64,000 nt of DNA from a virus. The stretch is taken from positions 1-64,000 of IMG/VR virus record IMGVR_UViG_3300032893_000018; one strand, 5' to 3'. Every line of letters starts with the position of its first letter. Position 1 is the stretch's first letter. Shown here piece by piece: positions 14,715 to 60,275 of the stretch. The notes under the pieces were generated by a model. It ran no database searches, was not told the DNA's origin, and worked only from the letters and a program-made list of their open reading frames with translations. Position numbers and translations under genes: made by a program.

Positions 14715-17018
14715 GTGCCGGTCCGGCTCGTCGTCGACAACCGCGTGCGCGTCGTCGGCAAGATCCCCGACGACGCGTCGGAGAAGCTTCGCGAGGAGTT
14801 CGAGCACGACAACCCGGACTTCTGGAAGAAGAAGCGGTTCAACCTCCGAGGGCACTTCCCGAGGAAGGCGCCGACGTGGACGTCGGTCGGTGGCGAGCTG
14901 TCGTTCCCTCGCGGCGGGTTCGACCGCGTGCGCGACGCGCTGAACACCGCGGGCGTGTCGTGGGAGATCGACGACCAGCGGCTCTCGGTGCCGGCGGAGA
15001 TCCCGCCGCACCGGGTCGAGCCGTGGCCGTTCCAGCGCGACGTGGTCGAGCGCGCGCGGCTGCACCAGTCCGGGATCCTGCGGAGCCCGGCGGGATGCTT
15101 GGTGGGCGACACGGTGATCGGCACGAACAGAGCGACTCTCGGCCGACCGATGAAGCTGGCCCACGTGGTGAGGATGTACAACGGAGGCAGTGCCAGCGGG
15201 CGGACCTGGGACACGCGGATCGAGACGAGGGTCCGGGCGCCGCACCAGGATGGGGCCGTCAGGCTGTCGCGTGTTCTCGGCGCGACGGCCAGCGGTGTGC
15301 GGCCCGTGTACGAGTTGAAGTTGGAATGCGGCCTGCGCGTCGAGGGGACGGCAGACCATCGCGTGATGACCCCGTTCGGTTGGGTCGCGATCGGGGACCT
15401 GGTTCCCGGCGCCGATTACGTGATGTTCGATGACACGCGGGGACGGCGTCCGATCAAGAGGGTTCTGAAGAAGTCGAAGCCGTCGTACCTGATGCGACAC
15501 TGCCCCGGGCATCCGCAGGCGGTGGCGAGGGGCAAGGGGTGCTTCTCGGTCGTTCTCCATCGGCTCGTCGTCGAGGCGCAGATGAACGGGCTGCCGCTCG
15601 AGGAGTTCATCAAGCGGGTGAGAGCCGGGGCGCGCGGGCTTCGATTCTTGAGCCCGGATTTGGTGGTGCACCACGATGACCGGGACACGAGGAACAACGA
15701 GCTCTCGAACCTGATCGTGATGACGGAGGCCGAGCACAAGCAGGTGCACGCGGCTGACTGCACGAGGAACTTCCAAGCCAGGTTGGCGCCGTCTCGAGTG
15801 GTTTCGGTCGAGTACTCCGGGGAGAAGGAGACCTACGATCTGGAGGTCGAGGACGCGGGGGCGTTCATGGCGAACGGGATCGCCGTGCACAACAGCGGCA
15901 AGTCGACCGCGCTCCTCCGGCTCATCTCGCAGCTCGGGCAGCGGACGCTCGTCGTCGTGTGGGCGGGCGGGCTCCTCCGCCAGTGGGTGCGCCGCGTGGC
16001 GAAGGAGCTCGGCGTGCCCGAGTCGTGGGTCGGGGTCGTCGACGGCAAGACGAAGCGGCTCGGGCCGATCACGATCGGGATGCAGCGCACGCTGCTGAAC
16101 CGCGTGGACGAGTACGCGGGCGAGTTCGGGCTCGTCGCCGCGGACGAGGTGCACCGCGCCGCCGCCGACGGGCTCTATCGACTCGTCGACGCGATGCCGG
16201 CGAAGTACCGCATCGGCGTGTCGGACGACGAGCGCCGCCGCGACCGGAAGGAGTTCCTGATCTACGACCTCTTCGGCCCGGTCGTCGCGGACGTCGACCA
16301 CAAGATGCTCGTCGACGAGGGCTACATCCTCGACGTCGATGTGCGCGTCGTGCCGACCGAGTTCGACGCGCCATGGTATCGCGACATCGACGCGCGCCAC
16401 GACGCGATCGACGGCGACGACGAGCAGGCGCAGAAGGCGCGCGCCCGGCTCAAGCGCGAGAAGGGCGAGCGGTTCGACGAACTCCTCGCCGCGATGCTCG
16501 CGGACGAGCGCCGCAACGCCCTGATCGCGCGGCTCGCCGTCGACGAGAAGCGCGCCGGCGAGCAGGTGATCCTAATGTCGCACCGGATCGACCACGTGCG
16601 CATGTACGACCGCCTGCTCGGCGAGCTCGGCCTGCGGTGCGGGTTCGTGATCGGCGGCGAGGAGAATCGCGTCGAGTACGAGAGCACGGTCGCGCGGCTA
16701 GCCGCCGGCAGGCTCGACGCGGCCGTCGGCACGTACCAGGCGATCGGTACGGGCATCGATCTCCCGAAGGTCGCCGCCGGGATCTTGACGACGCCGATCG
16801 CGAACAGCCAGGACGGGCGCTCGCAGTTCAAGCAGTTCCGCGGGCGGTTCGCGCGCACCGCCGACGGCAAGGACGGCGCGCGGCTCTACTACCCGTGGGA
16901 CGTGAGGGTCTACGGCGCGCGCCCGCTCGAGAACCTCTGCCGGTGGTCGCGCCGCGTCGTCGTGTGGTGGCATGACGCATGGACGCCCGGGCGGGCCGTG
17001 CTGAAGGAGATGAGCTGA
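14715..17018 (+). CDS. SF2 (UvsW/ResIII-like) helicase containing an intein
   Basis: Q motif PWPFQ, Walker A restored by splicing (SPAG|SGKST), DEVH, GTGIDLP. Confidence 0.9.
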   Translation: MPVRLVVDNRVRVVGKIPDDASEKLREEFEHDNPDFWKKKRFNLRGHFPRKAPTWTSVGGELSFPRGGFDRVRDALNTAGVSWEIDDQRLSVPAEIPPHRVEPWPFQRDVVERARLHQSGILRSPAGCLVGDTVIGTNRATLGRPMKLAHVVRMYNGGSASGRTWDTRIETRVRAPHQDGAVRLSRVLGATASGVRPVYELKLECGLRVEGTADHRVMTPFGWVAIGDLVPGADYVMFDDTRGRRPIKRVLKKSKPSYLMRHCPGHPQAVARGKGCFSVVLHRLVVEAQMNGLPLEEFIKRVRAGARGLRFLSPDLVVHHDDRDTRNNELSNLIVMTEAEHKQVHAADCTRNFQARLAPSRVVSVEYSGEKETYDLEVEDAGAFMANGIAVHNSGKSTALLRLISQLGQRTLVVVWAGGLLRQWVRRVAKELGVPESWVGVVDGKTKRLGPITIGMQRTLLNRVDEYAGEFGLVAADEVHRAAADGLYRLVDAMPAKYRIGVSDDERRRDRKEFLIYDLFGPVVADVDHKMLVDEGYILDVDVRVVPTEFDAPWYRDIDARHDAIDGDDEQAQKARARLKREKGERFDELLAAMLADERRNALIARLAVDEKRAGEQVILMSHRIDHVRMYDRLLGELGLRCGFVIGGEENRVEYESTVARLAAGRLDAAVGTYQAIGTGIDLPKVAAGILTTPIANSQDGRSQFKQFRGRFARTADGKDGARLYYPWDVRVYGARPLENLCRWSRRVVVWWHDAWTPGRAVLKEMS
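15096..15893 (+). mobile_element. Intein with HNH homing endonuclease (266 aa)
   Basis: Starts CLVGDT, block B TADHR, HNH LHRLV..VHHDDRDTRNNELSNL, ends TYDLEV..AVHN followed by Ser. Confidence 0.92.
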
Positions 17019-21600: not shown

Positions 21601-21646
21601 AAAAAGGTTTGCACGGTGGGCCATGTTGGCCTATCTATCGGGTGTC
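21601..21646 (+). promoter_or_regulatory. Sigma70-like promoter with palindromic operator
   Basis: TTGCAC-N17-TATCTA containing TGGGCCATGTTGGCCTA; near-identical to 34224-34268. Confidence 0.65.
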
Positions 21647-23176: not shown

Positions 23177-23838
23177 GCTCGTTCGCGGATGAGCTCATGG
23201 CCTGCCGCTCGGGGGCGATCGACGTCCCCGAGCTTCTCCGCCGCACGGCGCCCGTGTGGCGGCGGTTCGCCCGATATCTCCTTCGCAAGTGGCGCGCCCC
23301 GCTCGGCGTCGACGAGGAGGACGTGGTGCAGGAGGTGCTCGCCGCGGGCATCCCGGCGATCAAGGCGTGGGACCCGTCACGCGGGCCCGCGATCGACGCA
23401 TACGTGCAGTTCCAGGCGCTCGACAAGGCGAAGAAGTGGCTGCACACGCAGCGCAAGGCGAAGCGGCGCGACGACTCGGCGCCGTCGCGCGCGCCGCTCA
23501 CGTACACGCAGCTCGGGCTCGAAACGGCGGCGGACATCGAGCGCGTGGAGTCGTTTCGCACGCCGTGGTCGGCGACGCCCGAGGAGGTGGCGACCGAGCG
23601 GGAGGCGATTGCCCGCGTGGCCGAGCAGCTCAGGGCGGAGGCGCAGCGGTTCGTGGGCGAGGACCGCGGCATCCTGACGGCGCTGGCCGATGCCCGCTTG
23701 TGCGTGGACGATGCGGCGGAGTCGCTTCCGCTCGACGTCAGGATCGGACTGAGGCTATCCAACGTCGACGGCGCGCGCGCGGTCGTCCGACGTGCGATCG
23801 ATCGACTGCGCGCATCAACAGGAGGATCCGCATCATGA
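23173..23838 (+). CDS. Phage sigma70-family factor
   Basis: Region-2-like DEEDVVQEVL..AIKAWDPSRG..IDAYV. Confidence 0.65.
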   Translation: MSSFADELMACRSGAIDVPELLRRTAPVWRRFARYLLRKWRAPLGVDEEDVVQEVLAAGIPAIKAWDPSRGPAIDAYVQFQALDKAKKWLHTQRKAKRRDDSAPSRAPLTYTQLGLETAADIERVESFRTPWSATPEEVATEREAIARVAEQLRAEAQRFVGEDRGILTALADARLCVDDAAESLPLDVRIGLRLSNVDGARAVVRRAIDRLRASTGGSAS

Positions 23839-24908
23839 ACGTGAACATCGAGAAGGTCAGCGAAACCGCCCTTGCGGGCTACTGCAAGTCGCGCGGGATC
23901 AAAGTCCCGCGGGGCATCACGCTCCGCGAGAAGGTGAAGCTCGTCGAGACGCACCAGGTGGAGACCGTGCCCGACGACAACCTGTCGGAGCCGTGCACGG
24001 TGTGCGGCGGCGAGTCCGACACGAAGCTCGCCGCGTGCCCGTTCTGTGGCGCGGCAGGTATCGACGGCATGGTCGACGGCAAGCCGGTCGAGGCCGAGGG
24101 GCACGTCGTGCCCGACACGGAAGGGCCGCCGAAGGAGGCGAAGAAGAGCAGGAAGAAGCGGTCGGAGGCGGGACCGCCGGAGGTCGAGTCGCCGCCGAGC
24201 ACGACGCTTGCCGCCGACCACCCGCTGGAAGTCGGCATCGCGCGCGTGTTCGAGGCGAAGCGGGCGGGCGCGAACTGCATGTGGGACCTCGGCCGCGCGC
24301 TGATCGGGATCTTCGAGCACAACCTGTGGAAGCACCGCGTCGACGCGAACGGGAAGCCCAAGTACCGCGGGTGGAACCAGTTCGTGCAGGAGGAGCTCGA
24401 GATCGTGCCGAGCTACTCCTACAGGGTGATGGACGTCGCCGCGAACTTCTCGCGCGAGCAGTTCGTGTCGATCGGCGTGAAGAAGCTCACGTACTTGCTC
24501 GGCATCGGCGATCAGGACCGCAAGGAATTGATCGCGCGCACGCGCGACGAGAAGCTTACGGCGGAGCAGCTCGCCGACATCGTTTCCAAGATGAATAAGA
24601 GCGGCAAGAAGCCGAAGGGTCGCACGGCGGCGGCGACGCAGGCGGCGGCGGACAAGGCGGCGAAGCGCAAGGAAGGGCAGGGCGTGACCGCGATCGTCGC
24701 GCTCGGTCGGCAGACCGTGCCGCTATTCGCGCGTCCGTCGAAGGCGAATGGCAAGGGCAAGGACGAGAAGCCGAAGCACGCGAAGAAGATCGCGGACGAC
24801 CCGCACGGCCAGCTCGAACTGCACAACGGCGTCGTGATGCACTTCCGCCTCATGATGGGCGCGAAGGGCTTGAACCTCGTCGTGGAGACGCGGCGCACCG
24901 AGTCCTGA
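23835..24908 (+). CDS. Hypothetical DNA-binding protein with zinc ribbon
   Basis: CTVC/CPFC motifs, Lys-rich, AGGAGG RBS. Confidence 0.6.
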   Translation: MNVNIEKVSETALAGYCKSRGIKVPRGITLREKVKLVETHQVETVPDDNLSEPCTVCGGESDTKLAACPFCGAAGIDGMVDGKPVEAEGHVVPDTEGPPKEAKKSRKKRSEAGPPEVESPPSTTLAADHPLEVGIARVFEAKRAGANCMWDLGRALIGIFEHNLWKHRVDANGKPKYRGWNQFVQEELEIVPSYSYRVMDVAANFSREQFVSIGVKKLTYLLGIGDQDRKELIARTRDEKLTAEQLADIVSKMNKSGKKPKGRTAAATQAAADKAAKRKEGQGVTAIVALGRQTVPLFARPSKANGKGKDEKPKHAKKIADDPHGQLELHNGVVMHFRLMMGAKGLNLVVETRRTES

Positions 24909-34223: not shown

Positions 34224-34268
34224 AAAAGGTTGCAATGATGGGCCATCATGGCCTATCCTTTGGGTGTC
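34224..34268 (+). promoter_or_regulatory. Promoter/operator of the Cas12-like gene
   Basis: TTGCAA-N18-TATCCT containing the palindrome TGGGCCATCATGGCCTA (34239-34255). Confidence 0.65.
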
Positions 34269-34304: not shown

Positions 34305-35960
34305 ATGCTGACTCTTTCTCGACCAGCTCTGATCGAATCAGACGAAGAACGACTGTTGCGTGAGTGTGCCTCGGCGTGCTGGACCTATCACCGATTGCTC
34401 GACTTCGAGGAGCAGCACCAGCGTGTGCTCGACGAGGTCGCGAACACCATCGCCCCCGGCATCGTTAGAGTCGGTCGCATTCTTGCGCGGCTAGCGCGAC
34501 GAGCACGACGCGCGGAGCGCACGACGAAGGGGCAATGGGCGCCGAACCCGAGACCGGAACTCGCCGCCGGGTTGCGCCTGCGCTTGGACTCGATGCGCGC
34601 GGCGCGCAACGCAGATCCGCGTTGGGCCGTGGCGCTAGGCTGGGCCGACGAGCAAGTGGGAGAGCCGAAGTCCGTGCGTCGGCGTCGTGCGAAGCCCGTC
34701 GACAAGATCAAGCGTCGCAAGACGGAGACCGATGAAGCTTTTGCCAAGCGCCTCGCGCTGCTCTCGCAAGACGAGAGCGACGAGCACTACGCCAAAAAGC
34801 TCGAGGTCATTCCGCGAGACACTCGTCGCGACGCGTATCGCAAAGAGCTCTACGGGCAGCGCCGCATCTACTGGGGCACGTGGAACGCTCTCGTGCGGAG
34901 CGTCGACCAGGCGCGGAAGGACGTGATCGGCCAGCGTGCGCGAGGGATGCCGGCGGAGATCCGGCGCCCGAAGTTCCGCGACCCGGTTTCTCTTTCGGCG
35001 GACGCTGGCGGTTTCCGAATAGTCGAGCGCGGCTCGCCGTGGTGGACGCTGGAGCTCCGCATCGGGGTGAGCGACGGATGGGTCCGGTTCCGCGCAAAAT
35101 GCGGTAACTGGCACGCTGTCCCGGCGGACGCGGCGTTCCGCACGCTCAAGCTCACGCGGCGCAGGGATGGTGAGCGCTGGACGTATTCGGTGAGCCTAAC
35201 GATCGACATGGAAAAGTCGACGGCGCAGCGAGCAGAGTCGCGGGTCGTAGCGTTCGACTGGGGCCACCGTGAGCACGGGCATGACCGAGCATCCGATGGG
35301 ATCCGGGTTTTCACATGGCTCGGCGACGATGGCGAGCAAGGCGAAGTTCTGATCCCATCCGAGTGTCGCGCCGCCCTCGACGAGATCGACGGGCTGAAGA
35401 GCCGCCTGGACACGACCTACGATGCGAGACGGACGACGCTCGCTCGCCTTCATCGAAACAGGTACCTGTATCGGCGCGCGCTGATGCGGTCCGGCGTGCG
35501 GACCGCTGAGGAAACGGACTGGCTCCGATGGGAGATGCGGTACGAGCGTCGAATCATGGCGCGGCGAAAGAGGATCGTGAACCTCCGTCGAGAGATCTAC
35601 CTCACTGCCGTCCGGGAGCTGCGGGCCCGCTACGCGATCTTCGCGTTCGAGGCCGAGTCGGTACCGCAGATCAAGAAGAAGCAGAAGGACGAGGAGCGGA
35701 AACGTCGGCAGCGGAGCAACCGCGACCTCGCGGCGAGGTACGAGTTCACTTCGATTTGCGAGCGGTCAGGTGCCACGATTATCTCGGTACCCGCTCGCAA
35801 ATCGACGAAGGAGTGTCCAGATTGCGGGCAACTCACCGAAAACGGTCCTGAATTGCTCATTGCCTGCCCGGGTTGTGGGCGTATTCGGGACAAGGACCGA
35901 GGTGCGTCACGTGTCATCCTGGGCCGGGCGAAGGAGGCGCTCGCAAACCGTGCTGCATGA
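34305..35960 (+). CDS. cas12: Compact type V CRISPR effector, Cas12m (V-U1/V-M)-like, 551 aa
   Basis: IYWGTWN, RuvC-I VVAFDWG, RuvC-II FAFE, zinc finger CPDC/CPGC, RuvC-III RDKDRGASRVIL. GGAG RBS before ATG 34305; ends 31 bp before the array. Confidence 0.85.
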   Translation: MLTLSRPALIESDEERLLRECASACWTYHRLLDFEEQHQRVLDEVANTIAPGIVRVGRILARLARRARRAERTTKGQWAPNPRPELAAGLRLRLDSMRAARNADPRWAVALGWADEQVGEPKSVRRRRAKPVDKIKRRKTETDEAFAKRLALLSQDESDEHYAKKLEVIPRDTRRDAYRKELYGQRRIYWGTWNALVRSVDQARKDVIGQRARGMPAEIRRPKFRDPVSLSADAGGFRIVERGSPWWTLELRIGVSDGWVRFRAKCGNWHAVPADAAFRTLKLTRRRDGERWTYSVSLTIDMEKSTAQRAESRVVAFDWGHREHGHDRASDGIRVFTWLGDDGEQGEVLIPSECRAALDEIDGLKSRLDTTYDARRTTLARLHRNRYLYRRALMRSGVRTAEETDWLRWEMRYERRIMARRKRIVNLRREIYLTAVRELRARYAIFAFEAESVPQIKKKQKDEERKRRQRSNRDLAARYEFTSICERSGATIISVPARKSTKECPDCGQLTENGPELLIACPGCGRIRDKDRGASRVILGRAKEALANRAA

Positions 35961-35991
35961 ATCCGAGATCATTGGGGTCGTCCGGATGTCC

Positions 35992-37076
35992 CCATCAACA
36001 GCCGCGCGAGGCTTCGAGTATCGCGACAGCATGAACACCGACGGTGTTGCGACGTTCGAGCCGTCCATCAACAGCCGCGCGAGGCTTCGAGTATCGCGAC
36101 CCCGAGCACGACGAGAACTCGTCGGGCCATCAACAGCCGCGCGAGGCTTCGAGTATCGCGACGACCGATGACGGCGAGGCAGTTGTCGCGCCCGACGAAC
36201 CATCAACAGCCGCGCGAGGCTTCGAGTATCGCGACAGCTCTCCGAGTACCCCACGTCTTGGGACTTCTACGAATCCATCAACAGCCGCGCGAGGCTTCGA
36301 GTATCGCGACGCGTCGCTGCGGCGTCGGCGGGTCACGCGAGCTCCCCCATCAACAGCCGCGCGAGGCTTCGAGTATCGCGACAAGACCCGGCGAACCCCA
36401 CCGGCAACGACCTGTCCGCCATCAACAGCCGCGCGAGGCTTCGAGTATCGCGACAAGTAGAACACGATCGCTCCGACCACGGTCACGACGAGCTGCCATC
36501 AACAGCCGCGCGAGGCTTCGAGTATCGCGACGCATCAAAGAGCGTGAGTGGTACGGGGCCGTCGATCGCGGGCCATCAACAGCCGCGCGAGGCTTCGAGT
36601 ATCGCGACATGTTCTCGACCCTTTCGACCTGCTCGCGTCCCGCCCCATGCCGCCATCAACAGCCGCGCGAGGCTTCGAGTATCGCGACGCGGCACGCCTC
36701 CGGGACATCGCGGACCGCGCGCCGCCATCAACAGCCGCGCGAGGCTTCTTCGAGTATCGCGACGAGTCGGCACTGCACCGCGCGCCGCACGAGGTCGGCC
36801 ATCAACAGCCGCGAAGGGCTTCGAATACTTCGACCGTCGAGCACGCGGACCGGTCTCCCGCCATCAACAGCCGCGAAGGGCTTCGAATACTTCGACCATG
36901 GACGATCCGGGAGCGAGCGGCGGCGTACGCACACAAATAACAGCCGCGACGGGCTTCGAATACTTCGACCCCCACACGAGCAGCCATCAATAGCCGCGAA
37001 GGGCTTCGAATACTTCGACCGGTGGTAGCTGCCTGCCGCTTTATCAACAGCTGCTAGGGGCTTCGAGTACCTAGAC
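35992..37076 (+). CRISPR. CRISPR array: 16 repeats (36 bp), 15 spacers (14-44 bp)
   Basis: 11x CCATCAACAGCCGCGCGAGGCTTCGAGTATCGCGAC (11th has a 3-bp insertion), 4x the CCATCAACAGCCGCGAAGGGCTTCGAATACTTCGAC type, 1x TTATCAACAGCTGCTAGGGGCTTCGAGTACCTAGAC. Confidence 0.98.
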
Positions 37077-37146
37077 GAGAGGATGTAGATGCGCGGCAAT
37101 AACGGGCGATGGCAAAGCGAAAGCTCCGAGGCAAGCTGAAAAAACT

Positions 37147-37479
37147 TTGGACCACGAGCGGCAAGCACATCAATTCCAATTCGACGAGTTCTCCGAACGG
37201 GAGCGCAAGCTCAACGAGCTGCCCATGCACGTGAAGGTGCTGCAGAAGGCTCTCGGCGAAGCGCATCAGGAGATCGCGAAGCTTCGTCGTGTAGCGGACA
37301 AGAACAAATTCAGATTCGATGACGACGAGGACAGGGTGGGCGAAGTCGTGAACCAGGTCACGATGTATTTAGCGGCCATTGGTGCTCGCGTGAATTTGGA
37401 GGTCGAATTCGCCTCGGGGCGCAGGAACTCCTTCGAACTGCAAAACAGCCTCCTGCGCGATTTCTTGGGGATTCGATGA
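37147..37479 (+). CDS. Lower-GC coiled-coil ORF between CRISPR repeats 16 and 17
   Basis: 110-aa TTG ORF with protein-like composition; start uncertain. Confidence 0.5.
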   Translation: MDHERQAHQFQFDEFSERERKLNELPMHVKVLQKALGEAHQEIAKLRRVADKNKFRFDDDEDRVGEVVNQVTMYLAAIGARVNLEVEFASGRRNSFELQNSLLRDFLGIR

Positions 37480-37492
37480 GAGGATGCGCGAA

Positions 37493-37528
37493 CGCCCAAC
37501 AGCCGCGAAGGGCTTCGAATACTTTGAC
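37493..37528 (+). CRISPR. Orphan 17th repeat (type B, degenerate)
   Basis: CGCCCAACAGCCGCGAAGGGCTTCGAATACTTTGAC. Confidence 0.9.
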
Positions 37529-43002: not shown

Positions 43003-43650
43003 ATGCGCCGAACACGCGCACCAAGGCCCCCCGCGCCGCCGCGGGCAGGGAAAAGCCCCGCCGTCGAAGGAGGCGAGGGGTCACGCGGCACACCGCCGTC
43101 GTCGCCGTTCGAGATGCAGCAGCGGCGCGAGTGGGCGCTCCGGCTCCTCCGCGGCGGCGCGACGCTCGACCACCTGATCGAGTTCGGTCGCCGCCACGAC
43201 CCGCCGCTCTCCGAGCATCAGGTTCGGACTGCGTACCACGGCGTGCTCGACGATCAGTCGGAGGCGTTCGCGGACCAGCGCGAGAAGTACCGCTCGCTCC
43301 AGATCGCGCGGCTGTCGAACGACCTCGTGAACCTCCGGTCGCTGCTCGCGCAGTACACGCCGCGCCCACCGTCGGTGCAGGAGCCCACGGGATACCCGGG
43401 GCAGCCGCGGCAGCTCGCGTGGGTGTACTCGGCGATCGCCCGGCATGAGCGAGAGTGGGCGCGCGTCGCCGGCACGCACGCGCCGATCCGCGTCGAGCTC
43501 GACGCGAACGTCGGGATCAGGATCCGCGGCGCCGTGATGCAGGTCGTCGGCTCGCTCAGCGACGAGCAGATGGACGACCTCGCAGCGCAGCAGCTCGAGA
43601 TCGAGCGACGCGCTGGCGTGATCGACGCCCACGGGGACGCGGTCGAATGA
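43003..43650 (+). CDS. Probable terminase small subunit
   Basis: Helical HTH-like protein overlapping the terL start; C-terminal LSDEQMDDL. Confidence 0.55.
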   Translation: MRRTRAPRPPAPPRAGKSPAVEGGEGSRGTPPSSPFEMQQRREWALRLLRGGATLDHLIEFGRRHDPPLSEHQVRTAYHGVLDDQSEAFADQREKYRSLQIARLSNDLVNLRSLLAQYTPRPPSVQEPTGYPGQPRQLAWVYSAIARHEREWARVAGTHAPIRVELDANVGIRIRGAVMQVVGSLSDEQMDDLAAQQLEIERRAGVIDAHGDAVE

Positions 43651-45296
43651 GCGAGGTTCCCCCGAAGAAGGTGCAGGCGGTGGTGAAGCGCTTGTTCGCG
43701 CAAGCGGCGCGCGCTCGCGTCGACCCGGCGGCGTTCTTCGAGTTCGTGATGGTCGAGGAGTTCACAGGCAAGCCGCTGAAGATCGCCCCGCACCAGCAGC
43801 TCTTCTTCGACTTCGTGACGGCCCACCCGCGGTGCGTCGTCCGCGCGTTCGCAGGCGCGTCGAAGACGTACATGGTGTCGGCGCTCACGCTGTTCAAGCT
43901 CGGCCAGGACTCGTCCGAGCGCGGCGTCATCCTGAGCGCCACCGTCGGGCAGGCGAAGAAGCCGGTCGGCATGGTGCGCCGGTACATCGAGGACGGCGGC
44001 CGGCTCGCGCTCGTGTTCCCCAAGCTGATGCGCTCGCCGCGGCCCGGCGACTCATGGACGCAGACGCAGCTCGTCATCGCCCGCGAGCGCGTGATCCGAG
44101 ACCCGTCGCTCACCGTGTGCGGCATCGGCGGCAAGCTGCCCGGCGCGCGCATCTCGTGGGCGAACGCCGACGACCTCCTGACGCTGGAGAACACGCTCGC
44201 CGAGGCGCAGCGCGAGCACACATTTACGTGGATGGGCAGCACGGTGATCCCGCGGCTCGACACCGACGACAGCCACATCGTCGTGACGAACACGCCGTGG
44301 TTCCCGACCGACCTCACCTACCAGCTTGAGAAGGGCATGGACGGCGCCGACCCGTGGCCGTCGCTCACGATGGAGGCGCACGGGGACGTGATCATCCGCA
44401 ACACGGAGTGGGACTCGCCGCTCGTGCGCCCCGCGATGACGGACGACCCGAGGCAGGAGCGGTGCCGACTCGTCGCGCACGATCACCCCCGCTACGCGAA
44501 GATGGTCGGGGTCCATGGGGCGAAGGCGGGGTGGGTCGACGAGGCGGATCGCGTGCCGCTGTGGCCCGAGAAGTGGAACTGGGAGCAGCTCGAGGCGCGC
44601 CGGAAGATCATGCCGGCGTCCGAGTACAACCGCACCATGCGCTGCATCGTCCGCGACAAGGACAGCGAGCGCGTCAAGACCGAGTGGATCGACGCGTGCA
44701 AGGACGCGGCGAAGAAGAACGGCGCCGACAAGCTCGTGTCGCAGTGGGGCGGCGACCACGTGTACACGGGCGTCGACCCCGCCTTCGGGCTGTCGGCGAA
44801 GCACGACCGCAGCTGCATCTTCACGTTCTGCGTTCTGCCGACCGGGCACCGTCGGATCCTCGACGTGAAGGTCGGGCGGTGGCGGTCGAGCGACATGGTC
44901 GACCGCATCATCCAGACGTCGCAGGCGTACGGCTCGCTGGTCTGCGTCGAGGGCAATTCAGCGCAGAAGCTCATCCGCGACTGGGCGCGCGAGAAGAACG
45001 TGAACGTGATGATCCGCGCGCGCGACACGACGGGGAAGAACAAGATGGACCCGCGCTTCGGCATCGAGTCGATCTTCCACGAGGTCGAGCGCGGCGCGTG
45101 GCTCATCCCGTCCGACGCGAAGGGGGCGATGCCCGCCGGGGTGGCGGACTGGGTGCAGGACCTCTTCGACTACGAGCCGGACCAGCACACGGGTGACGTG
45201 CTGATGGCGTCGTGGATCGCGCGCGAGCAGGCACGTCGCCGCGGTGCGTTCGCCCACGCGGACGCGGGCGGGCTCGCGGGGCTTTCGAGCCGGTGA
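43647..45296 (+). CDS. terL: Terminase large subunit
   Basis: PHQ, RAFAGASKT, ADDL, NTPW..DL, PLWPEKW, GVDPA, VEGNSAQ, HTGDVLMA. Confidence 0.88.
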   Translation: MSEVPPKKVQAVVKRLFAQAARARVDPAAFFEFVMVEEFTGKPLKIAPHQQLFFDFVTAHPRCVVRAFAGASKTYMVSALTLFKLGQDSSERGVILSATVGQAKKPVGMVRRYIEDGGRLALVFPKLMRSPRPGDSWTQTQLVIARERVIRDPSLTVCGIGGKLPGARISWANADDLLTLENTLAEAQREHTFTWMGSTVIPRLDTDDSHIVVTNTPWFPTDLTYQLEKGMDGADPWPSLTMEAHGDVIIRNTEWDSPLVRPAMTDDPRQERCRLVAHDHPRYAKMVGVHGAKAGWVDEADRVPLWPEKWNWEQLEARRKIMPASEYNRTMRCIVRDKDSERVKTEWIDACKDAAKKNGADKLVSQWGGDHVYTGVDPAFGLSAKHDRSCIFTFCVLPTGHRRILDVKVGRWRSSDMVDRIIQTSQAYGSLVCVEGNSAQKLIRDWAREKNVNVMIRARDTTGKNKMDPRFGIESIFHEVERGAWLIPSDAKGAMPAGVADWVQDLFDYEPDQHTGDVLMASWIAREQARRRGAFAHADAGGLAGLSSR

Positions 45297-49577: not shown

Positions 49578-52145
49578 GTGGTCGCTGTGACGGCCGTCGC
49601 GACGAACTACAAGTTCCCGACCGAGAAGAGCTCGGACGGATCGATCCGCGCCGTGTCGAGCTTCGGCCCCGACATGACGTCCTTCGGCCTGGACCCGTCG
49701 CACCTCGGGAAGGCCGGCTACGACGCGGAGGCGCTGTACAACAGCGAACGCGCCAAGGAGCTCGACTTCCGATCGAGCTTCTACCGGTGCACGAACCACA
49801 ATTGGAAGCCATTCAACATGGACGGCGGGCTGATTGGGCCGCAGGAGCGCAGCGCTCCGTTCGAGGGCGCTCAGCCCATGATGTCGACCATGTCGGGGCC
49901 GACGTCGTACGTGCCGCTGTCGGCGCGCCGCCCGCACGCGCCGGTTCGGATCGCGCGCACGATCGTGCGCGCGTTCACCGGGATGCTCTTCGGGCACAAT
50001 CGCTGGCCCGGGATCCGCAGCGACGACCCCGACACGCAGGCGTTCGGCGAGGCCGTGGCGAAGGCGGCGAACCTCCGGAACCGGTTCGTGCGGGCGCGGA
50101 ACCTCGCGGGCTCGTGCGGCACCGCGGCGCTCTCGTGGTTCTTCCGCCAGGGCTCGCCGCGCGTGCGGGTGCACACCGGGCGGTTCGTCCACGTGCTCGA
50201 GTGGGACGACGTCGACGACTACGTCGTGAGGCACGCGACGGAGCTCTACCAGAGCTGGGCGACGCGCGAGACCGAGGACGGGCCGCAGCGCTATCGCGTG
50301 TGGGTGCGTCGCGATTGGACGCCCGAGGCCGACGTCGTGTTCAAGCCGATCGAGGTGACGGGCGAGAGCCCCGAGCAGTGGGTGATCGATAAGGAGCGGA
50401 GCTTCGTTCATGGCGACGGGTTCGCCCACATCGTCTGGCTCACGAACTACCCGGACGACGACGAGCCGTCGGCGGTCGACGGGCAACCGGATTACGCCGA
50501 GCTGTACGACCCGATGGCGACGCTCGACGTGTCGAACTCCGTCGCCGTGCGCGGCGTGATGCGGAACCTCGACCCGACGCTCGTCGTGAAGATGGACCCG
50601 ATGGACGTCGGCGCGGCGATGATCAAGAAGGGCAGCGATAACGCCCTGGTCGTCGGCGAGCAGGGCGACGCGGATTACCTCACGATCGATGGAGATGTGG
50701 TGACGGCGGGCAAGGAGTTCGTCGGCACGCAGCGCGAGCAGATCCTGGAAGTCGCGCAGTGCGTGGTGCCCGATCCGAACGAGGTCGCCGCGGGCGGCAC
50801 GAGCTCGGTCGCGCAGAAGATGATGTACGCGCCGATGATCGGCACCGCCGACGTCCTTCGCGAGCCGTGCGGGCACGCGCTCGTCCAGCTGCTCGAACAG
50901 ATGAAGCTATCGGCTGCAAACGAGATGAGCCGACCGCCGGGCGAGGTGCAGGAGTACGACGTCGACCTGTCCGAGCCCGAGTCGGAGCCCGACGCGCTGG
51001 AGCAGGACGACGACGTTGAGAACTTCGAGGCCGAGGAGATGACAGCGGCGGACCAGGAGCAGCCGGCATCCGCGGTCGAGTACTACCTCGACCTCCCTCC
51101 GCGCGTAGTGATCGACGTCGTCGACGGTCAGAAGGTCGAGCGCAAGGTCGAGATCAAACCGGGCGAGGGGAAGTTCTGGCTGGAGTGGGGCGAGTACTTC
51201 CCGCCGACGTCACAGGACAAGCAGGCCGCCACCGAGGCGGTGTCGTCGGCGGCGGGCGGGAAGTCCGTGCTGTCGCAGCAGACCGCGGTCGAGCTCGCGT
51301 CATCGCTGTACAACAAGGACGCCACGGAGGAGTGGGCGCGCGTGCAGGCGGAGCGCGAGCAGGACGCACGCGAGACGGCGGGCATGTTCCCGGGCACGGG
51401 CGGCGAGGTCGATCCGAACGCGTCCGAGCCCGTCGACACCCCTGCGCCCGACGACGATCAGGAGACGTTGATCACGCCGACCGACATGAGCGTCGTCACG
51501 CTCGTGAACGAGGCGCGCGCGTCGGCAGGGCTCGGTCCGCTCCGCACGCCCGAGGGGCAGTCCGACCCCGACGGGTGGCTCACGGTCGAGGAGTTCCGCG
51601 CGAAGCGACAGGCGAAGGGCGAGCAGCAGGGCGCGGTCGAGGGCAAGGTCGCCGCGGGCGTCGACCCAGCGGATGCGGCAGCCGACGCGATCGATGCGCC
51701 GGCTGCCGATGCGCCGCCGACCGATGCTGCCGATCCGCCGACCGGCGGTGGCGACATCACGAACCAGGTCGACGGGATCCTGCAGGGCGATTTCCCCGAC
51801 GAGGCGTTCGACTGGGTGCACGACGCCAAGTGGACGGGCCCGACGAGCGTGCCGATTGACAAGATCGACACGTCGCAGCGCGACACGTGGCGCGCTAGCA
51901 AGGAGCCCGGCAAGGTCGCCGACTTCGCTGGCCTGATGCAGGCGGGCGGTGAGGACATCAAGCCGGTGATCCTCGTGCGATGGCCCGGTTCGAAGCAGCT
52001 GTTCGTCGCCGATGGTCACCACCGAGTGCTCGCGGCGGAGAAGGCGGGCGTGCCGGTGAAGGCGTTCATCGCCGACGTGCCGCAGCAGAACGGCCCGTGG
52101 ATGACGATGCACTCGAAGCAGATCCCGAAGGCGGCAGGGCAATGA
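49578..52145 (+). CDS. Portal protein with acidic linker and C-terminal ParB-like domain
   Basis: First large head gene, directly before MuF; portal-like core (ARTIVRAFTGMLFG, LSQQTAVE); C-terminal PVILV..VADGHHRVLAA. Confidence 0.7.
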   Translation: MVAVTAVATNYKFPTEKSSDGSIRAVSSFGPDMTSFGLDPSHLGKAGYDAEALYNSERAKELDFRSSFYRCTNHNWKPFNMDGGLIGPQERSAPFEGAQPMMSTMSGPTSYVPLSARRPHAPVRIARTIVRAFTGMLFGHNRWPGIRSDDPDTQAFGEAVAKAANLRNRFVRARNLAGSCGTAALSWFFRQGSPRVRVHTGRFVHVLEWDDVDDYVVRHATELYQSWATRETEDGPQRYRVWVRRDWTPEADVVFKPIEVTGESPEQWVIDKERSFVHGDGFAHIVWLTNYPDDDEPSAVDGQPDYAELYDPMATLDVSNSVAVRGVMRNLDPTLVVKMDPMDVGAAMIKKGSDNALVVGEQGDADYLTIDGDVVTAGKEFVGTQREQILEVAQCVVPDPNEVAAGGTSSVAQKMMYAPMIGTADVLREPCGHALVQLLEQMKLSAANEMSRPPGEVQEYDVDLSEPESEPDALEQDDDVENFEAEEMTAADQEQPASAVEYYLDLPPRVVIDVVDGQKVERKVEIKPGEGKFWLEWGEYFPPTSQDKQAATEAVSSAAGGKSVLSQQTAVELASSLYNKDATEEWARVQAEREQDARETAGMFPGTGGEVDPNASEPVDTPAPDDDQETLITPTDMSVVTLVNEARASAGLGPLRTPEGQSDPDGWLTVEEFRAKRQAKGEQQGAVEGKVAAGVDPADAAADAIDAPAADAPPTDAADPPTGGGDITNQVDGILQGDFPDEAFDWVHDAKWTGPTSVPIDKIDTSQRDTWRASKEPGKVADFAGLMQAGGEDIKPVILVRWPGSKQLFVADGHHRVLAAEKAGVPVKAFIADVPQQNGPWMTMHSKQIPKAAGQ

Positions 52146-52277: not shown

Positions 52278-54263
52278 ATGGCCGCGCGGAAACCGCCACC
52301 GCACGAGCTCGTCAAGGCGACGCGCGACGACGCGAACGCGTACAAGGGTCGCGCCGATCCCGTGCGCGTGCTCCGGGCGAACCGCGAGCAGGTGATCCGG
52401 CTTGCGCAGGGCAAGGGCGTCGGCCGCATGCGCGAGGTGCTGAAGCGCGCGGAGAAGGCGCTCGCGTCGCGCCTCGGCTCGGGCCCGCTTGCCGGTGGCA
52501 AGGAGGGGTTCTCCGCGGTGCAGCGCCGGCTCGCGCTTGCACAGATCCGCGCGGTGGTCGGCGACGTGGGCGATGGCGTGAAGGACGTCGTCGTCGATGG
52601 TGCGGGGCCTCTCGCGGAGGACGCGGGCGCGGGCGTGATCGACTACATGCGCGCGTCGGATCGGAAGTTCAGAGGCATCGTCGAGCGGCTACCGATCCGC
52701 GAGGCCGCGGTGCTCGACCGCGCGACGCAGGGCGCCGAGAGCAGCGTGCTTCACCGGCTGATGGGCGACCCGAGGAAGGGTCCGGGGATCCTCAAGCGGT
52801 ACGGCGACGGCGTCGTCGAGCGGTTCGAGCAGGCGCTGCAGCAGCGCTTCCTGCAGAAGACATCCTGGGAGGACACGCGCGCCGCGATCGTCGCCGAGTC
52901 GCCGTTCCTGCAGGGCGTGCCCGGGCACTGGGCGGAGCGCATCGTGCGCACCGAGTGCTTAGTCGGCGAGACGCCGGTTTCCGGAGCGGTGGTACGGGCA
53001 GCTTTTCGCCGGTGGTACGAGGGCCCGATCGTCGAGTTCATCACCGACAATGGCCGCCACTTCGCCACAACCCCGAATCACCCAATGCTGACGAGGCGCG
53101 GATGGGTCGCGGCGGCGGCTCTCAACGATGGTGACGATCTGGTCTGCTACCGAGGGCAGCAGCACGCGCGTGCGCCTGGCGACGAACACCGTGAGCACGC
53201 ACCATCCACGGTCGCTCAGATATTCGATTCGCTCACGGAGATACGGGTCCTTCAGCGGCGACGCGGTTCCAAGGACGACTTCCACGGCGACGGGATGCAG
53301 CGCGAGATCGAGATTGCGAGTGCCGACCGGGAGCTGGAGGTCGGGGTGTACGCCCCTCTCTTCAAGCCACTGTGCGATCAGATCCTCACCCCAACCCACG
53401 CGACGCGCCCTGCTTTTTGCCGCAATTGCGGACGCCTTCTGTCGATCGATGAGCAGGCGTGCTTCTGCAGAGCTCCGAATTTGTACTCCCTCCATACGCA
53501 AACGGTAGAGCACGCCGCGTTTATCGATGCCGAACTCGCGAGCGAGACTCTTGATGCTCTCGCCGGAGACGTAGCGTTTCGCAATCGCTTGCGTGGGCAC
53601 CTCGCCGCGGAACCTGGGTGGCACTCCGCCCCTGGTATGAAACGCAAGGCGAGCCGCCGATCGGGTGCGGGCCTTTCCGATCTTGCGCAGATGCTTGCGC
53701 AGAGTGTGGACGTTGGCTCCGGCTCGGGCGGCCGCGTCGCCGGTGCTCGCGCCTGCGACGTAGAGTTCGATGGCGTGGTCGAGGTTCGAATGCGCGAGTT
53801 TCGAGGACACGTCTACAACCTGACCACGTGGGACGGATACTTCTGCATTGCCGGAGCTTATACCGGAAACACGATGGGTGTGTATAACCGCGCGTCGCTC
53901 GACGCGTCCCGCGAGCTCGATGACCAGCTCGGCGACGTCGTGAAGATCCTGTGCGCCACGTTCGACGGTCGCACGGCGTGGGACAGCTACCTCGTGCACG
54001 GGCAGATCCGGCGCGTCGACGAGCCGTTCGAATGCCCCGAGTATAACGGGTCGGTGCATCGGTACATGCATCCGCCGAACCGCCCGAACGATCGCGAGGT
54101 GGTCGTGACGCACCGGGTGGCGTGGCCGATCCCCCCGGAGCTCCGCCCGCGGCCGAGGAGCGAGGCGGCGTCGCGGTGGGCCGACGCGGGGTACTCGCGG
54201 GCGATGCCGGCGACGCCGCGACAGACCACCGTGCCGCTTGAGCGGTTCGGCAGGGTCGCTTGA
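52278..54263 (+). CDS. MuF/SPP1 gp7-like head morphogenesis protein containing an intein
   Basis: AERIVRTE|...|TMGVYN, DGRT, VHGQIR, PPNRPNDR. Confidence 0.85.
   Translation: MAARKPPPHELVKATRDDANAYKGRADPVRVLRANREQVIRLAQGKGVGRMREVLKRAEKALASRLGSGPLAGGKEGFSAVQRRLALAQIRAVVGDVGDGVKDVVVDGAGPLAEDAGAGVIDYMRASDRKFRGIVERLPIREAAVLDRATQGAESSVLHRLMGDPRKGPGILKRYGDGVVERFEQALQQRFLQKTSWEDTRAAIVAESPFLQGVPGHWAERIVRTECLVGETPVSGAVVRAAFRRWYEGPIVEFITDNGRHFATTPNHPMLTRRGWVAAAALNDGDDLVCYRGQQHARAPGDEHREHAPSTVAQIFDSLTEIRVLQRRRGSKDDFHGDGMQREIEIASADRELEVGVYAPLFKPLCDQILTPTHATRPAFCRNCGRLLSIDEQACFCRAPNLYSLHTQTVEHAAFIDAELASETLDALAGDVAFRNRLRGHLAAEPGWHSAPGMKRKASRRSGAGLSDLAQMLAQSVDVGSGSGGRVAGARACDVEFDGVVEVRMREFRGHVYNLTTWDGYFCIAGAYTGNTMGVYNRASLDASRELDDQLGDVVKILCATFDGRTAWDSYLVHGQIRRVDEPFECPEYNGSVHRYMHPPNRPNDREVVVTHRVAWPIPPELRPRPRSEAASRWADAGYSRAMPATPRQTTVPLERFGRVA
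52956..53870 (+). mobile_element. Intein (305 aa) in the MuF-like gene
   Basis: CLVGET start, TPNHPMLTRRGW block B, GHVYNLTT block F, ends TGN followed by Thr. Confidence 0.88.
52959..53810 (-). CDS. HTH-containing Vsr/DUF559-like endonuclease encoded antisense inside the intein
   Basis: Two HTHs (IELYVAGASTGDAA; KRYVSGESIKSLAREFGI), then GEDLIAQWL..NLDLAL..VAVEV..RERIEYLSDRGWCVL. Confidence 0.75.
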   Translation of the reverse strand: MSSKLAHSNLDHAIELYVAGASTGDAAARAGANVHTLRKHLRKIGKARTRSAARLAFHTRGGVPPRFRGEVPTQAIAKRYVSGESIKSLAREFGIDKRGVLYRLRMEGVQIRSSAEARLLIDRQKASAIAAKSRARRVGWGEDLIAQWLEERGVHPDLQLPVGTRNLDLALHPVAVEVVLGTASPLKDPYLRERIEYLSDRGWCVLTVFVARRTRVLLPSVADQIVTIVESRRRDPSAPRQHWVIRGCGEVAAIVGDELDDRALVPPAKSCPYHRSGNRRLAD

Positions 54264-58025: not shown

Positions 58026-59420
58026 ATGTCTCAGCAACTCGTCGTAGGCATCCCGCCTGCGGTCCTCAAGCTCCAGCAGGAAGGTCTGCTCGAGCGTTCG
58101 TTCCACGACGGCCTGTTCCCGGCTCTCCTCTTCCGCGGCGAAGCGGAGGTCGACACGTGGCCCGAGCACGCCGGCACCGAGATGCTCTTCACGCGGCCCG
58201 GCCTGATGGCGCCCGTGACGGAGCCGATCGCGCCCGGCACGGACCCGCAGAGCCAGACGGTGCCCTACGAGCAGTGGGTCGCGCAGCTCGTGCGGTACGC
58301 GAACAGCATCGACACGCACATCCCGACGTCGGTCACGGCGAACGGCGATCTGTTCCTCCGCAACATCCACCAGCTCGGCCTGAACGCCGGGCAGTCGGTG
58401 AACCGCATCGTGCGCAACGCGCTCTTCGTCCCGTACCTCTCGGGGTCGACGAACATGATCGCGGCGGGCGGCAGCACGGACGACACGATCCGCGTCGCCG
58501 CGCTGAACGGCTTCACGGACGTCGTGCTGACGGCGAACGTGCGACCGGTGCCGGTGAGCTCGTCCTCGCCGCTGCCGATCACGATCAAGAACTCGGGCGG
58601 CGACATCGCGGTGAACGTCGTCGGTTTCGAGGCGGACGACCCGACCGATCCGAACGGCCCGGGCACGCTCTTCCTCGACGCCGCGCTCGGCGCGACCGTG
58701 GCGATCCGCACGCCGGTGCTCTCGGCGAACCGGCCGATCATCATCCGCGCGGGCGGCGGCTTCTCGGTCGACGCGATCAGCTCGTCCGACGTGCTGCAGC
58801 TGCAGGACATCATCAACGCGGTCCAGAAGCTGCGTAAGCAGAACGTGATGCCCCACGAGGACGGGTTCTTCCACGACCACGTCCCGACGGAGGGCGAGGC
58901 CCAGCTGTTCACCGACCAGGTCGTGCAGCGCCTCAACACGTCCCGCCCCGACGACGTCTACTACCAGGAGGCGTTCATCGGGACGATGGCCGGGTGCGTG
59001 CACTACTCGAACAACGAGTGCCCGGACTCGGACAACAGCGGCACGCTCGTGTCGACGGGCACGAGCTCGTTCTACTCGCGCGGCATCGGCGCGGAGACGA
59101 TCAACGCGGCCGGCGTGCGCATCGGTCGCCTGATCATCACGGGCCGCGGCGTCCTCCAGGAGCGGTGGATGGACGAGAACAAGTACCTCACCGAGGCCGG
59201 CGTCACCGGCAAGGTCGGGGACTTCCAGATCGTCAACATGGGCATCCAGGTCGACACCGACCGCGTGCAGCTCAAGCTGCGCGCGCCGCTGAACAAGCTC
59301 ATGGACGAGGTGAGCGCGACGTGGGCGGCGACGACGTCGTTCGCCGCGCCGACCGACATCGCGTCGGGGGGCCCTCAGAGATATAAGAGGGCCATCTGCG
59401 TGGAATTCGCAATCGAATGA
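58026..59420 (+). CDS. Major capsid protein
   Basis: 464 aa after the scaffold gene; strong AAGGAG RBS, very biased codons, structured leader. Confidence 0.75.
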   Translation: MSQQLVVGIPPAVLKLQQEGLLERSFHDGLFPALLFRGEAEVDTWPEHAGTEMLFTRPGLMAPVTEPIAPGTDPQSQTVPYEQWVAQLVRYANSIDTHIPTSVTANGDLFLRNIHQLGLNAGQSVNRIVRNALFVPYLSGSTNMIAAGGSTDDTIRVAALNGFTDVVLTANVRPVPVSSSSPLPITIKNSGGDIAVNVVGFEADDPTDPNGPGTLFLDAALGATVAIRTPVLSANRPIIIRAGGGFSVDAISSSDVLQLQDIINAVQKLRKQNVMPHEDGFFHDHVPTEGEAQLFTDQVVQRLNTSRPDDVYYQEAFIGTMAGCVHYSNNECPDSDNSGTLVSTGTSSFYSRGIGAETINAAGVRIGRLIITGRGVLQERWMDENKYLTEAGVTGKVGDFQIVNMGIQVDTDRVQLKLRAPLNKLMDEVSATWAATTSFAAPTDIASGGPQRYKRAICVEFAIE

Positions 59421-59480: not shown

Positions 59481-60275
59481 GTGAAGCGCTGCACGATCTG
59501 CACTCGCGAGCATCACCGCAAAGACGGTCGGTGCTCCGAGTGCAGTCGCGCACGCAAGCGCGGCGAGCTCTACGGCCGCGCGATCGAGTGGGGGATGCGC
59601 GCCGCGACGGGTCTTCGAGCGTGCACGCACTGCGGGGCGATGAAGGACGTCGACGCCTTCAAGTGGCAGAAGCGGAAGCTCGGCAGGCATCGAACGTCTT
59701 GGTGCAGGGCGTGCCTCAACGAGCGCGCGAACGAGTCGATGAAGGTGCTCTGGCACTCGCCCGAGCGGAGGGCCTTGCGCGGGTTGCAGCGGGGGATGCG
59801 GTGGCTTTGCAGGCCGAAGCCGTTGACTCCGAACGAACGCGCGGCCAATTGGCGGAATGCGAACCGGGAGCGTTACCGAGAGATCACGCGGTCGTTTTGG
59901 CGCACGCCGAAGGGCAAAGCCTGGATCCGGAATAACCGGGACAAGTTGAGCGCAGCCCGCAAGCGCTTCGCCAGGACGCCGCACGGCCGCGAGGCGATCC
60001 GCCTGCAGGCGCAGAAGCGGCGGGTGCTCATCGCGCGGGCGGTGTGCACGCTCACGCGGGCCGAGTGGGAGGCGATCGTCGAGCGGCACCGCCACTGCTG
60101 CGCGTACTGCGGGAAGAAGCTCGTCGGCGCCGACCTGACGATGGACCACGTCGTGCCGATCTCGAAGGGCGGGCACCACACGGCGGCGAACGTCGTGCCC
60201 GCATGCGGCTCGTGCAACTCGAGGAAGCACGCGCTGGGCCTGGAGGACTTCCTCGCGCGCCTCCGGTCGTCGTAG
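59481..60275 (+). CDS. HNH homing endonuclease
   Basis: CAYCG..LTMDHVVPISKGGHHT..NVVPACGSCNSRK. Confidence 0.92.
   Translation: MKRCTICTREHHRKDGRCSECSRARKRGELYGRAIEWGMRAATGLRACTHCGAMKDVDAFKWQKRKLGRHRTSWCRACLNERANESMKVLWHSPERRALRGLQRGMRWLCRPKPLTPNERAANWRNANRERYREITRSFWRTPKGKAWIRNNRDKLSAARKRFARTPHGREAIRLQAQKRRVLIARAVCTLTRAEWEAIVERHRHCCAYCGKKLVGADLTMDHVVPISKGGHHTAANVVPACGSCNSRKHALGLEDFLARLRSS

Follow-up and report, generated by a model that had tools for sequence, protein, structure and literature searches.

The closest described systems to the locus analysed here are those of type V-M, CRISPR systems built around the effector Cas12m. The Cas12m family has four clades, two of which, clades 3 and 4, carry the residues DED in the RuvC triad and might support two-metal hydrolysis, and conversion of the HDD triad of Cas12m2 to DED did not bring cutting back (PMC10442227). 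Eight Cas12m proteins were tested by Bigelyte et al. (2024; PMC11013384), four of which have a D-E-D triad, namely MsCas12m, TfCas12m, ApCas12m and UnCas12m, the last a protein of 583 amino acids (aa) from an IMG/VR contig (Table S2 of that study). None of the eight cleaved double-stranded DNA (dsDNA), and the D-E-D proteins showed no dsDNA, single-stranded DNA (ssDNA) or collateral cleavage; six Cas12m bound DNA beside T- or C-rich protospacer-adjacent motifs (PAMs), and the processing of the CRISPR RNA precursor (pre-crRNA) was independent of RuvC (PMC11013384). Loci of types V-U1 to V-U5 are typically without adaptation genes (PMC11013384). A literature search on the names Cas12m3, Cas12m4 and UnCas12m4a found nothing. 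Here we describe a CRISPR locus at positions 34,305 to 37,528 of the IMG/VR virus record IMGVR_UViG_3300032893_000018; the stretch analysed, hereafter the window, covers the initial 64 kb of this single 93,897-bp record, whose completeness is 100% according to CheckV.

The locus is a self-contained, phage-borne type V-M (Cas12m-family) cassette of a kind that has already been described, and we think it moderately likely that, in conflicts of the phage with its host or with other phages, it silences foreign DNA by crRNA-guided binding. New beyond the literature are the size and the apparent phage restriction of the subfamily to which the effector belongs, a pseudoknot in the repeat backed by covariation, a candidate target in a cyclic oligonucleotide-based antiphage signalling system (CBASS), and the varied neighbourhoods of the cassette. 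The features of the locus are as follows.

34230-34259, + strand: promoter-like element with TTGCAA, the 13-bp palindrome GGCCATCATGGCC (34241-34253) and TATCCT, from a palindrome search
34305-35960, + strand: cas12m-like effector gene, 551 aa, from Pfam PF07282, PDB sequence matches, an AlphaFold (AF2) model, Foldseek and VIA-align
35961-35991, + strand: gap of 31 bp between stop codon and first repeat, from the sequence
35992-36763, + strand: proximal array with spacers S1-S10; ten identical class A repeats are followed by an 11th that carries a TTC insertion
36383-36418, + strand: spacer S6, with matches in genes for CBASS-type oligonucleotide cyclases from two Polyangiales genomes
36764-37076, + strand: distal array with variant repeats, five in number and of classes B and C; includes spacers S11-S15
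37077-37492, + strand: stretch of 416 nucleotides (nt) with a lower GC content (56%), between the array and a solitary repeat
37493-37528, + strand: solitary class-B-like repeat with 11 differences from class A, just 5' of the next small gene

The effector gene and its protein family

The original prediction, made from the letters of the window, described an effector gene, a 31-bp gap and an array with no adaptation genes, and the locus agrees with this in every detail. That the system is phage-encoded, minimal, Cas12m-like and apparently independent of a trans-activating crRNA (tracrRNA) was likewise borne out. Neither Cas1 nor Cas2 had a match across the whole 93,897-bp genome, which also holds no anti-repeat. 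The lack of adaptation genes is nevertheless not the special feature that it had been taken for, being typical of V-U1/V-M loci (PMC11013384).

For the effector protein, Pfam (PF07282) and NCBIfam detect only the zinc-ribbon TNB region of TnpB and Cas12f. A single-sequence search against the PDB sequences retrieved UnCas12m4a (5e-15) and a 577-aa Cas12m (9e-10), and a profile made from 55 homologues matched the same two at 5e-21 and 1e-17, the 577-aa protein nearly at full length (profile positions 117-543). The profile also matched Cas12m2 (1.8e-11) and GoCas12m (5.8e-11) through REC and WED (positions 119/121-329/375), whereas the matches to TnpB, Fanzor and Cas12f were confined to the C-terminal RuvC/TNB part. 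The AF2 model is confident, with a predicted local distance difference test score (pLDDT) of 89.6, and places the domains as follows.

Residues 1-10 and ~228-301: WED
Residues ~14-212: helical REC
Around D318: RuvC-I
Residues 352-440: coiled-coil insertion
Around E449: RuvC-II
C504/C507/C521/C524: zinc-ribbon TNB
D529: RuvC-III

The model thus has the Cas12m architecture, with a helical REC lobe and helices 352-440 between D318 and E449. Foldseek ranked Cas12m2 and GoCas12m on top, at 1e-20 to 1e-21, with TnpB at 1e-11 or weaker and Cas12f structures at 1e-10 to 1e-11, a margin of ten orders of magnitude. In VIA-align, the best structures (GoCas12m/Cas12m2) gave Z scores of 19.6 and 19.3 over 479 and 474 residues; TnpB reached 19.2 but with only 340 residues aligned, corresponding to the shared core, and Cas12f structures reached 15-16 over ~375 residues. 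Cas12f, the effector of type V-F, is a tracrRNA-dependent dimer of 400-550 aa. Judged by sequence and predicted fold, the effector is a Cas12m homologue of a divergent subfamily. The original prediction had named a grouping with insertion sequence (IS)-associated TnpB, together with a failure to load the crRNA, as the outcome that would overturn it; what we found instead of such a grouping is Cas12m-specific homology in REC and WED, and an array in 13 of the 13 related loci whose downstream DNA was available.

The acidic RuvC triad, which had been noted as intact, proved to be so: D318 (AFDWG), E449 (AFE) and D529/D531 (DKD) are invariant in the 55 homologues (46-80% identity). The zinc cysteines C507 and C521 are also invariant in these, and C504 is conserved in at least 90%. 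The triad of Cas12m varies by clade between HDD, NDD, HEK and DED; the combination D318/E449/D529 is the triad type of Cas12m clades 3 and 4 and lies inside the family as described (PMC10442227, PMC11013384). The premise that the RuvC domain of characterised Cas12m is degenerate must be abandoned for these clades, as they carry DED (PMC10442227).

The subfamily is sizeable. We collected 127 related protein clusters with 43-82% identity, nearly all of them metagenomic and many on contigs of 60-113 kb; three cluster members are IMG/VR genomes rated complete. The effectors of the subfamily have ~510-570 aa, and some sources label the homologues as transposase. An exhaustive profile search revealed a sharp gap, with only 31 representatives below 1e-30, followed by a tier at ~1e-25 that consists of proteins of 550-650 aa, mostly D-E-D. 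In a tree of unnamed representatives only, the group was recovered as monophyletic; the branch leading to it was long, and a deep sub-branch within it was D-D-D. The DED triad is kept in 114 of 132 wider relatives. A search of GenBank phages with the array (blastn) and with the protein (tblastn) gave no match. One of 401 Polyangiales genomes contained a homologue, on an 8-kb contig of a metagenome-assembled genome (MAG). From this count and the metagenomic clusters, the subfamily looks phage-restricted. The genes that flank the cassette are not conserved among the related phage loci, and since they differ between phages, the cassette behaves as a portable module.

The start of the gene at 34305 is preceded by GGAG 6 nt 5' of the ATG and is favoured because the N-terminus agrees with the consensus of the 55 homologues; an alternative upstream ATG (34248) falls within the palindrome of the promoter-like element. 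The palindrome search recovered three sites against 0.07 expected, and the element at 34230-34259 is likely to be a regulator-binding site. A near-copy of the whole element, ~40 nt long, lies 5' of a gene at 21616 (PHROG 1362, of unknown function), which suggests that this gene and cas12m may be under shared control by a palindrome-binding protein. The elements at 21610-21640 and 34230-34260 are near-identical and read AAAAGGTTGCA-N4-TGGGCCATnnTGGCCTATC-N4-GGGTGTC, and a weaker relative is found at ~62183. A simple sigma-70 scan called no promoter, including at the element at 34230-34259. A tracrRNA gene of its own would not fit into the 31-bp gap, and the array would therefore probably be transcribed together with the effector gene or from a promoter within the 3' end of that gene.

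The array and its repeat RNA

The CRISPR array at 35992-37076 contains 16 repeats of 36 nt, the variant ones located at 36799-37076. All 15 spacers differ; they are 26-44 nt long ahead of the variant repeats and 14-37 nt among them, with lengths of 26, 37, 14 and 21 nt for S12-S15. A search for a copy of the repeat on the reverse strand found none within 12 mismatches in the whole 94-kb genome, and we infer that the guide consists of crRNA alone, without a tracrRNA. The 416-nt stretch that separates the array from the solitary repeat contains an orphan open reading frame (ORF) that starts at 37147 or 37225 and ends at 37479, encoding 110 or 84 aa. This ORF (37147-37479) belongs to no Pfam or PHROG family and has no homologue but itself among 5.8 billion proteins; it may have entered the array recently, for example as a gene for a regulator or one of anti-CRISPR type, or it may be no real gene.

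Repeats of the same family are located directly 3' of the effector gene in 13 of the 13 related loci for which downstream DNA was available. We aligned 67 distinct repeats and tested them for covariation, with slid partners and shuffles as controls. The predicted pseudoknot consists of stem 1, in which positions 9-12 pair with 19-22, and stem 2, in which positions 14-18 pair with 30-34. Its pair cells were paired in 98.8% of cases as compared to 29-46% in the slid controls, and six covarying pairs with 77 double-change cells were obtained, values that no shuffle reached. Within the window, stem 2 occurs as CGCGA/TCGCG, CGAAG/CTTCG and CTAGG/CCTAG, and both of its halves have changed together in the repeats of classes B and C. 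On this comparative evidence, the 36-nt repeat contains a conserved pseudoknot.

The array of a 109-kb related phage (G003; L003 7688-10230) illustrates the same pattern on a larger scale, with 37 repeat copies in 2.5 kb, dozens of variants, and the pairing kept. Repeat heterogeneity of this type is unusual for a CRISPR array. Variant-rich arrays that retain the pairing imply selection on the RNA and no homogenisation by frequent acquisition, and the heterogeneity in G003 points either to slow evolution that does not depend on acquisition or to arrays that have recombined with each other. The proposal that the uniform proximal repeats reflect recent acquisition through Cas1-Cas2 of the host found no support. 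Across the 401 Polyangiales genomes, the repeat family was confined to a single MAG, in which it lay on two contigs, besides three isolated repeat-like matches. In another related phage (G002, 70.6 kb, from IMG/VR), repeats of this family form a second array, ~26 kb from its cas12m gene; the arrays and repeats are at ~23446-24180 and 49700-49880, with single repeat-like matches near 3770, 12450 and 69485.

Spacer targets and the role of the cassette

A search of the spacers against viral and host sequences, as had been proposed originally, returned no exact protospacer for any of them in the phage genome itself, related phages, GenBank phages, IMG/VR or the 401 Polyangiales genomes, and one candidate, for S6, in two Polyangiales genomes. 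The spacers had no match longer than 13 nt in their own genome and only repeat matches in three related complete phage genomes. When 110 spacers of related arrays were compared to all related phage loci examined, neither cross-targeting nor shared spacers were found, and degenerate, codon-tolerant patterns for S1, S4, S6 and S8 had zero matches in IMG/VR. Matches of S5, S7, S10 and S11 in the 401 Polyangiales genomes (E-values of 1e-3 to 1e-5) were rejected as GC-rich noise because they struck unrelated genes (NuoL, a P-type ATPase, ABC transporters, AcrB and PilM), and those of S7 and S11 served as the noise control; one of the noise matches was located in a genome that is unpublished (G129).

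Spacer S6 aligns over its full length with a cyclase gene, at 32 of 36 nt in one genome (G174) and at 30 of 36 in the homologue of another (G091). Read in the frame of the G174 gene, it encodes (E)DPANPTGNDLS, and each of the four mismatches is at a third codon position and synonymous; the G091 gene likewise has only synonymous mismatches, three in number, as far as the Leu codon, while its final 5 nt are divergent and the peptide there reads LA instead of LS. The match is flanked on the 5' side by TCG or TTG, which would fit the T/C-rich PAM of Cas12m. Both matching genes are identified as Cyclase by PADLOC (E-values of 2e-26 and 2e-35) and carry the Pfam domain AGS_C. The coding pattern for DPANPTGNDL was found only in G174 and G091 among the 401 genomes and never in the reversed control; within the family of G174 there was no better match to S6. 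Because the mismatches are synonymous only, the peptide is rare and the flank is fitting, we regard it as quite probable that S6 was derived from a CBASS-type cyclase gene.

We also considered where protospacers may be located. Among the 85 spacers of at least 30 nt from all arrays compared, nine carried an ATG within the first 5 nt from which the frame stayed open, whereas 3.1 such spacers were expected on the basis of shuffles (p ~0.003, for a hypothesis that was formed post hoc); in the window these are S1, S9 and S13. The ATG-rich starts may indicate protospacers at gene starts. A strand bias relative to the coding sense was not seen (14 confident sense and 11 antisense spacers).

If the phage effector acts like characterised Cas12m, the gene and the array would be transcribed from a promoter at ~34230-34259, and the effector itself would process the transcript into crRNAs that consist of a repeat and a guide of ~17-20 nt. 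The complex would then bind dsDNA beside a 5' T/C-rich PAM and block transcription or replication there, with no cutting. The targets would lie outside the phage, and at least one spacer, as S6 suggests, would come from a CBASS cyclase gene. A spacer of this origin implies that the cassette is probably used to counter host defence or to compete with other mobile elements in which such genes are present. One specific hypothesis is that Cas12m is a programmable anti-defence silencer, whereby the S6 crRNA is directed to the CBASS cyclase gene of the host or of a resident element and blocks its transcription, and that the subfamily more generally silences host immunity or rival elements by binding close to gene starts. 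Such silencing is in line with the ATG enrichment, and a CapH/CapP-like regulator is located 5' of the cyclase gene in G091, which suggests that the CBASS may be inducible; we put the hypothesis forward only tentatively and consider it doubtful in this specific form.

Several observations weigh against the silencer model. The structure-based identity of the subfamily to Cas12m2/GoCas12m is only ~18% and its branch is long and separate, so its activity could differ. Strict conservation of D-E-D is equally expected of a nuclease, and transcriptional silencing would leave in place the cyclase protein that is already in the cell. A plausible source was obtained for only one of 15 spacers, at 89% identity and in genomes that may not be those of the host. 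By its alignment score alone, S6 is at noise level, and a chance match of equal E-value exists; the two cyclase genes are homologous and are thus not independent evidence. Moreover, the cyclase gene is frameshifted between its N- and C-terminal halves in G174 (L070 7027-8249) and truncated to the C-terminal part and AGS-C in G091 (L071 5080-5997), which could be due to assembly errors or real decay. Lastly, the ~35 spacers of the G003 array gave low-complexity matches only in the 401 Polyangiales genomes.

One alternative explanation is that the protein is a cleavage-competent relative of Cas12m whose D-E-D RuvC domain cuts rival phages, plasmids or host loci, as the intact triad had been taken to indicate. 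The invariance of D318/E449/D529 in the 55 homologues and the retention of DED in 114 of the 132 wider relatives would be explained by this, the subfamily is distant from every tested Cas12m, and Cas12j, another compact phage effector, does cut. A deep branch of the subfamily is however D-D-D, like the dead HDD and NDD forms, and since the triad of Cas12m2 serves metal-mediated binding of the non-target strand, conservation has a second explanation. Clades 3 and 4 might support two-metal hydrolysis, but Cas12m2 remained unable to cut after its HDD triad had been converted to DED (PMC10442227), and four D-E-D Cas12m, one of them from a viral contig, lacked dsDNA, ssDNA and collateral cleavage (PMC11013384). 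Cleavage competence is thus a weak inference from the intact triad, and we judge this explanation to be rather unlikely.

We also considered the possibility that the cassette is a decaying relic or a selfish passenger with a fossil array, in which case the spacer matches, including that of S6, would be due to chance. The degenerate distal repeats and their short spacers (14-26 nt), the repeat with a 3-nt insertion, the solitary repeat 416 nt away and the lack of an exact protospacer anywhere searched could be read in this way, and flanking genes that vary between phages are also what a mobile element would show. However, the open frame is intact with catalytic and zinc residues invariant in the 55 homologues, the gene has a promoter-like element of its own, and ten of the repeats are identical, while the variant ones hold the pseudoknot by compensatory changes, indicative of selection on the RNA. 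The relatives have no spacers in common, which points to turnover, and a relic seems improbable to us. Still less credible is a TnpB of the IS200/IS605 type with its guide RNA, beside which the repeats would be unrelated. Such TnpB proteins have ~400 aa and reside in a transposon with ends, often together with TnpA; the guide RNA overlaps the 3' end of the gene, and there is no array. Pfam and NCBIfam see only the TnpB/Cas12f TNB region in the effector, and some homologues are annotated as transposase. In contrast, the protein is 551 aa long and has the REC and coiled-coil insertions of the Cas12m type, each of the 13 loci has an array of this repeat family behind the gene, the repeat covaries as a crRNA scaffold, and the genome has a single copy of the effector gene and no scattered repeat copies. 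We favour a silencer that acts by binding DNA.

The carrier phage and related systems

The genome has a GC content of ~69%, and nearly all genes are on the + strand. An exact terminal repeat was not found in the 93,897 bp. Structural genes of a tailed phage and a full replication module were recognised with PHROG and Pfam, which confirms the phage origin. The structural genes include the following.

43455-45296: large terminase (PHROG/Pfam)
49578-52145: portal (PHROG/Pfam)
52278-54263: MuF-like head protein (PHROG/Pfam)
58026-59420: major head protein (PHROG/Pfam)

Genes for replication and repair comprise a DNA polymerase, a primase, a DnaB-type helicase, a RecA/UvsX-like recombinase, SbcCD-like proteins and a RuvC-like resolvase. 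A tyrosine integrase was not found in the phage genome. The carrier, a tailed phage, probably has a virulent lifestyle, and its host probably belongs to the Polyangiales. No Rfam families were found in the window. The helicase ORF at 14715-17018 holds an internal HNH-endonuclease-like segment (residues ~288-354), and a free-standing HNH/endonuclease VII gene (59481-60275) directly follows the gene for the major head protein; the two point to a traffic of homing endonucleases in the phage.

Our findings indicate that Cas12m systems in phages are not one-off cases but belong to a sizeable subfamily, apparently phage-restricted, with 127 clusters at varied genome positions. Small effectors that use only a crRNA, with a defined pseudoknot as the scaffold, make appealing candidates for compact tools that target DNA. 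Should the spacer indeed derive from CBASS, it would represent a natural case of a phage CRISPR silencer set against nucleotide-signalling defence, and it would offer a direct way to ask what the natural role of the D-E-D Cas12m is.

The CRISPR systems that phages carry and direct at islands of the host or at competing elements include the type I-F system of the Vibrio phage ICP1, directed against the phage-inducible chromosomal island-like element (PLE), and the Cas12j arrays of huge phages. Effector and array are often carried by phages without adaptation genes. The ICP1 type I-F system and Cas12j cut DNA, whereas the effector described here comes from a family known for silencing by binding, and its single candidate target is a CBASS cyclase gene.

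Among the solved structures, the best sequence matches to the phage effector are UnCas12m4a (23vu) and a 577-aa Cas12m (23vw), with a similarity that is at the level of hidden Markov models (HMMs) only. With MmCas12m2 and GoCas12m (PDB 8hhl and 8pm4), the effector shares the bilobed fold, the helical REC and the coiled-coil insertion in RuvC. It differs from that pair in its triad (HDD there, DED here), with a structure-based identity of ~18%; it is 45-60 residues shorter, and those proteins are from bacteria, not from phages. The repeat RNA resembles the Cas12m2 crRNA in the pseudoknot near the 3' end, the G:A pair and the terminal C (PMC10442227), and it resembles the crRNAs of MmCas12m2 and GoCas12m in the end ...GAC and in a stem near -23 to -19 with -7 to -3.

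The four D-E-D Cas12m proteins (MsCas12m, TfCas12m, ApCas12m and UnCas12m) are likewise compact, TnpB-derived and D-E-D, with a crRNA only, a 36-nt repeat with two stems and no adaptation genes. Their catalytic residues are spaced at ~153-155 and 89-91, as compared to 131 and 80 in the phage effector, which is placed on a separate branch that looks phage-restricted. A further similar case is MvCas12m of the myxophage MV-1 (bioRxiv 10.64898/2026.09.14.751636, September 2026), which is likewise a V-M effector with an array in a Polyangiales phage; cas1/2/4 and a tracrRNA are absent there too, the DED triad is conserved, and protospacers were not found. MvCas12m has 610 aa, the triad D305/E463/D555 and eight spacers, whereas the effector described here has 551 aa and its array 15 spacers. 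For MV-1, a temperate lifestyle with an integrase is predicted, unlike the phage studied here, in which no integrase was found.

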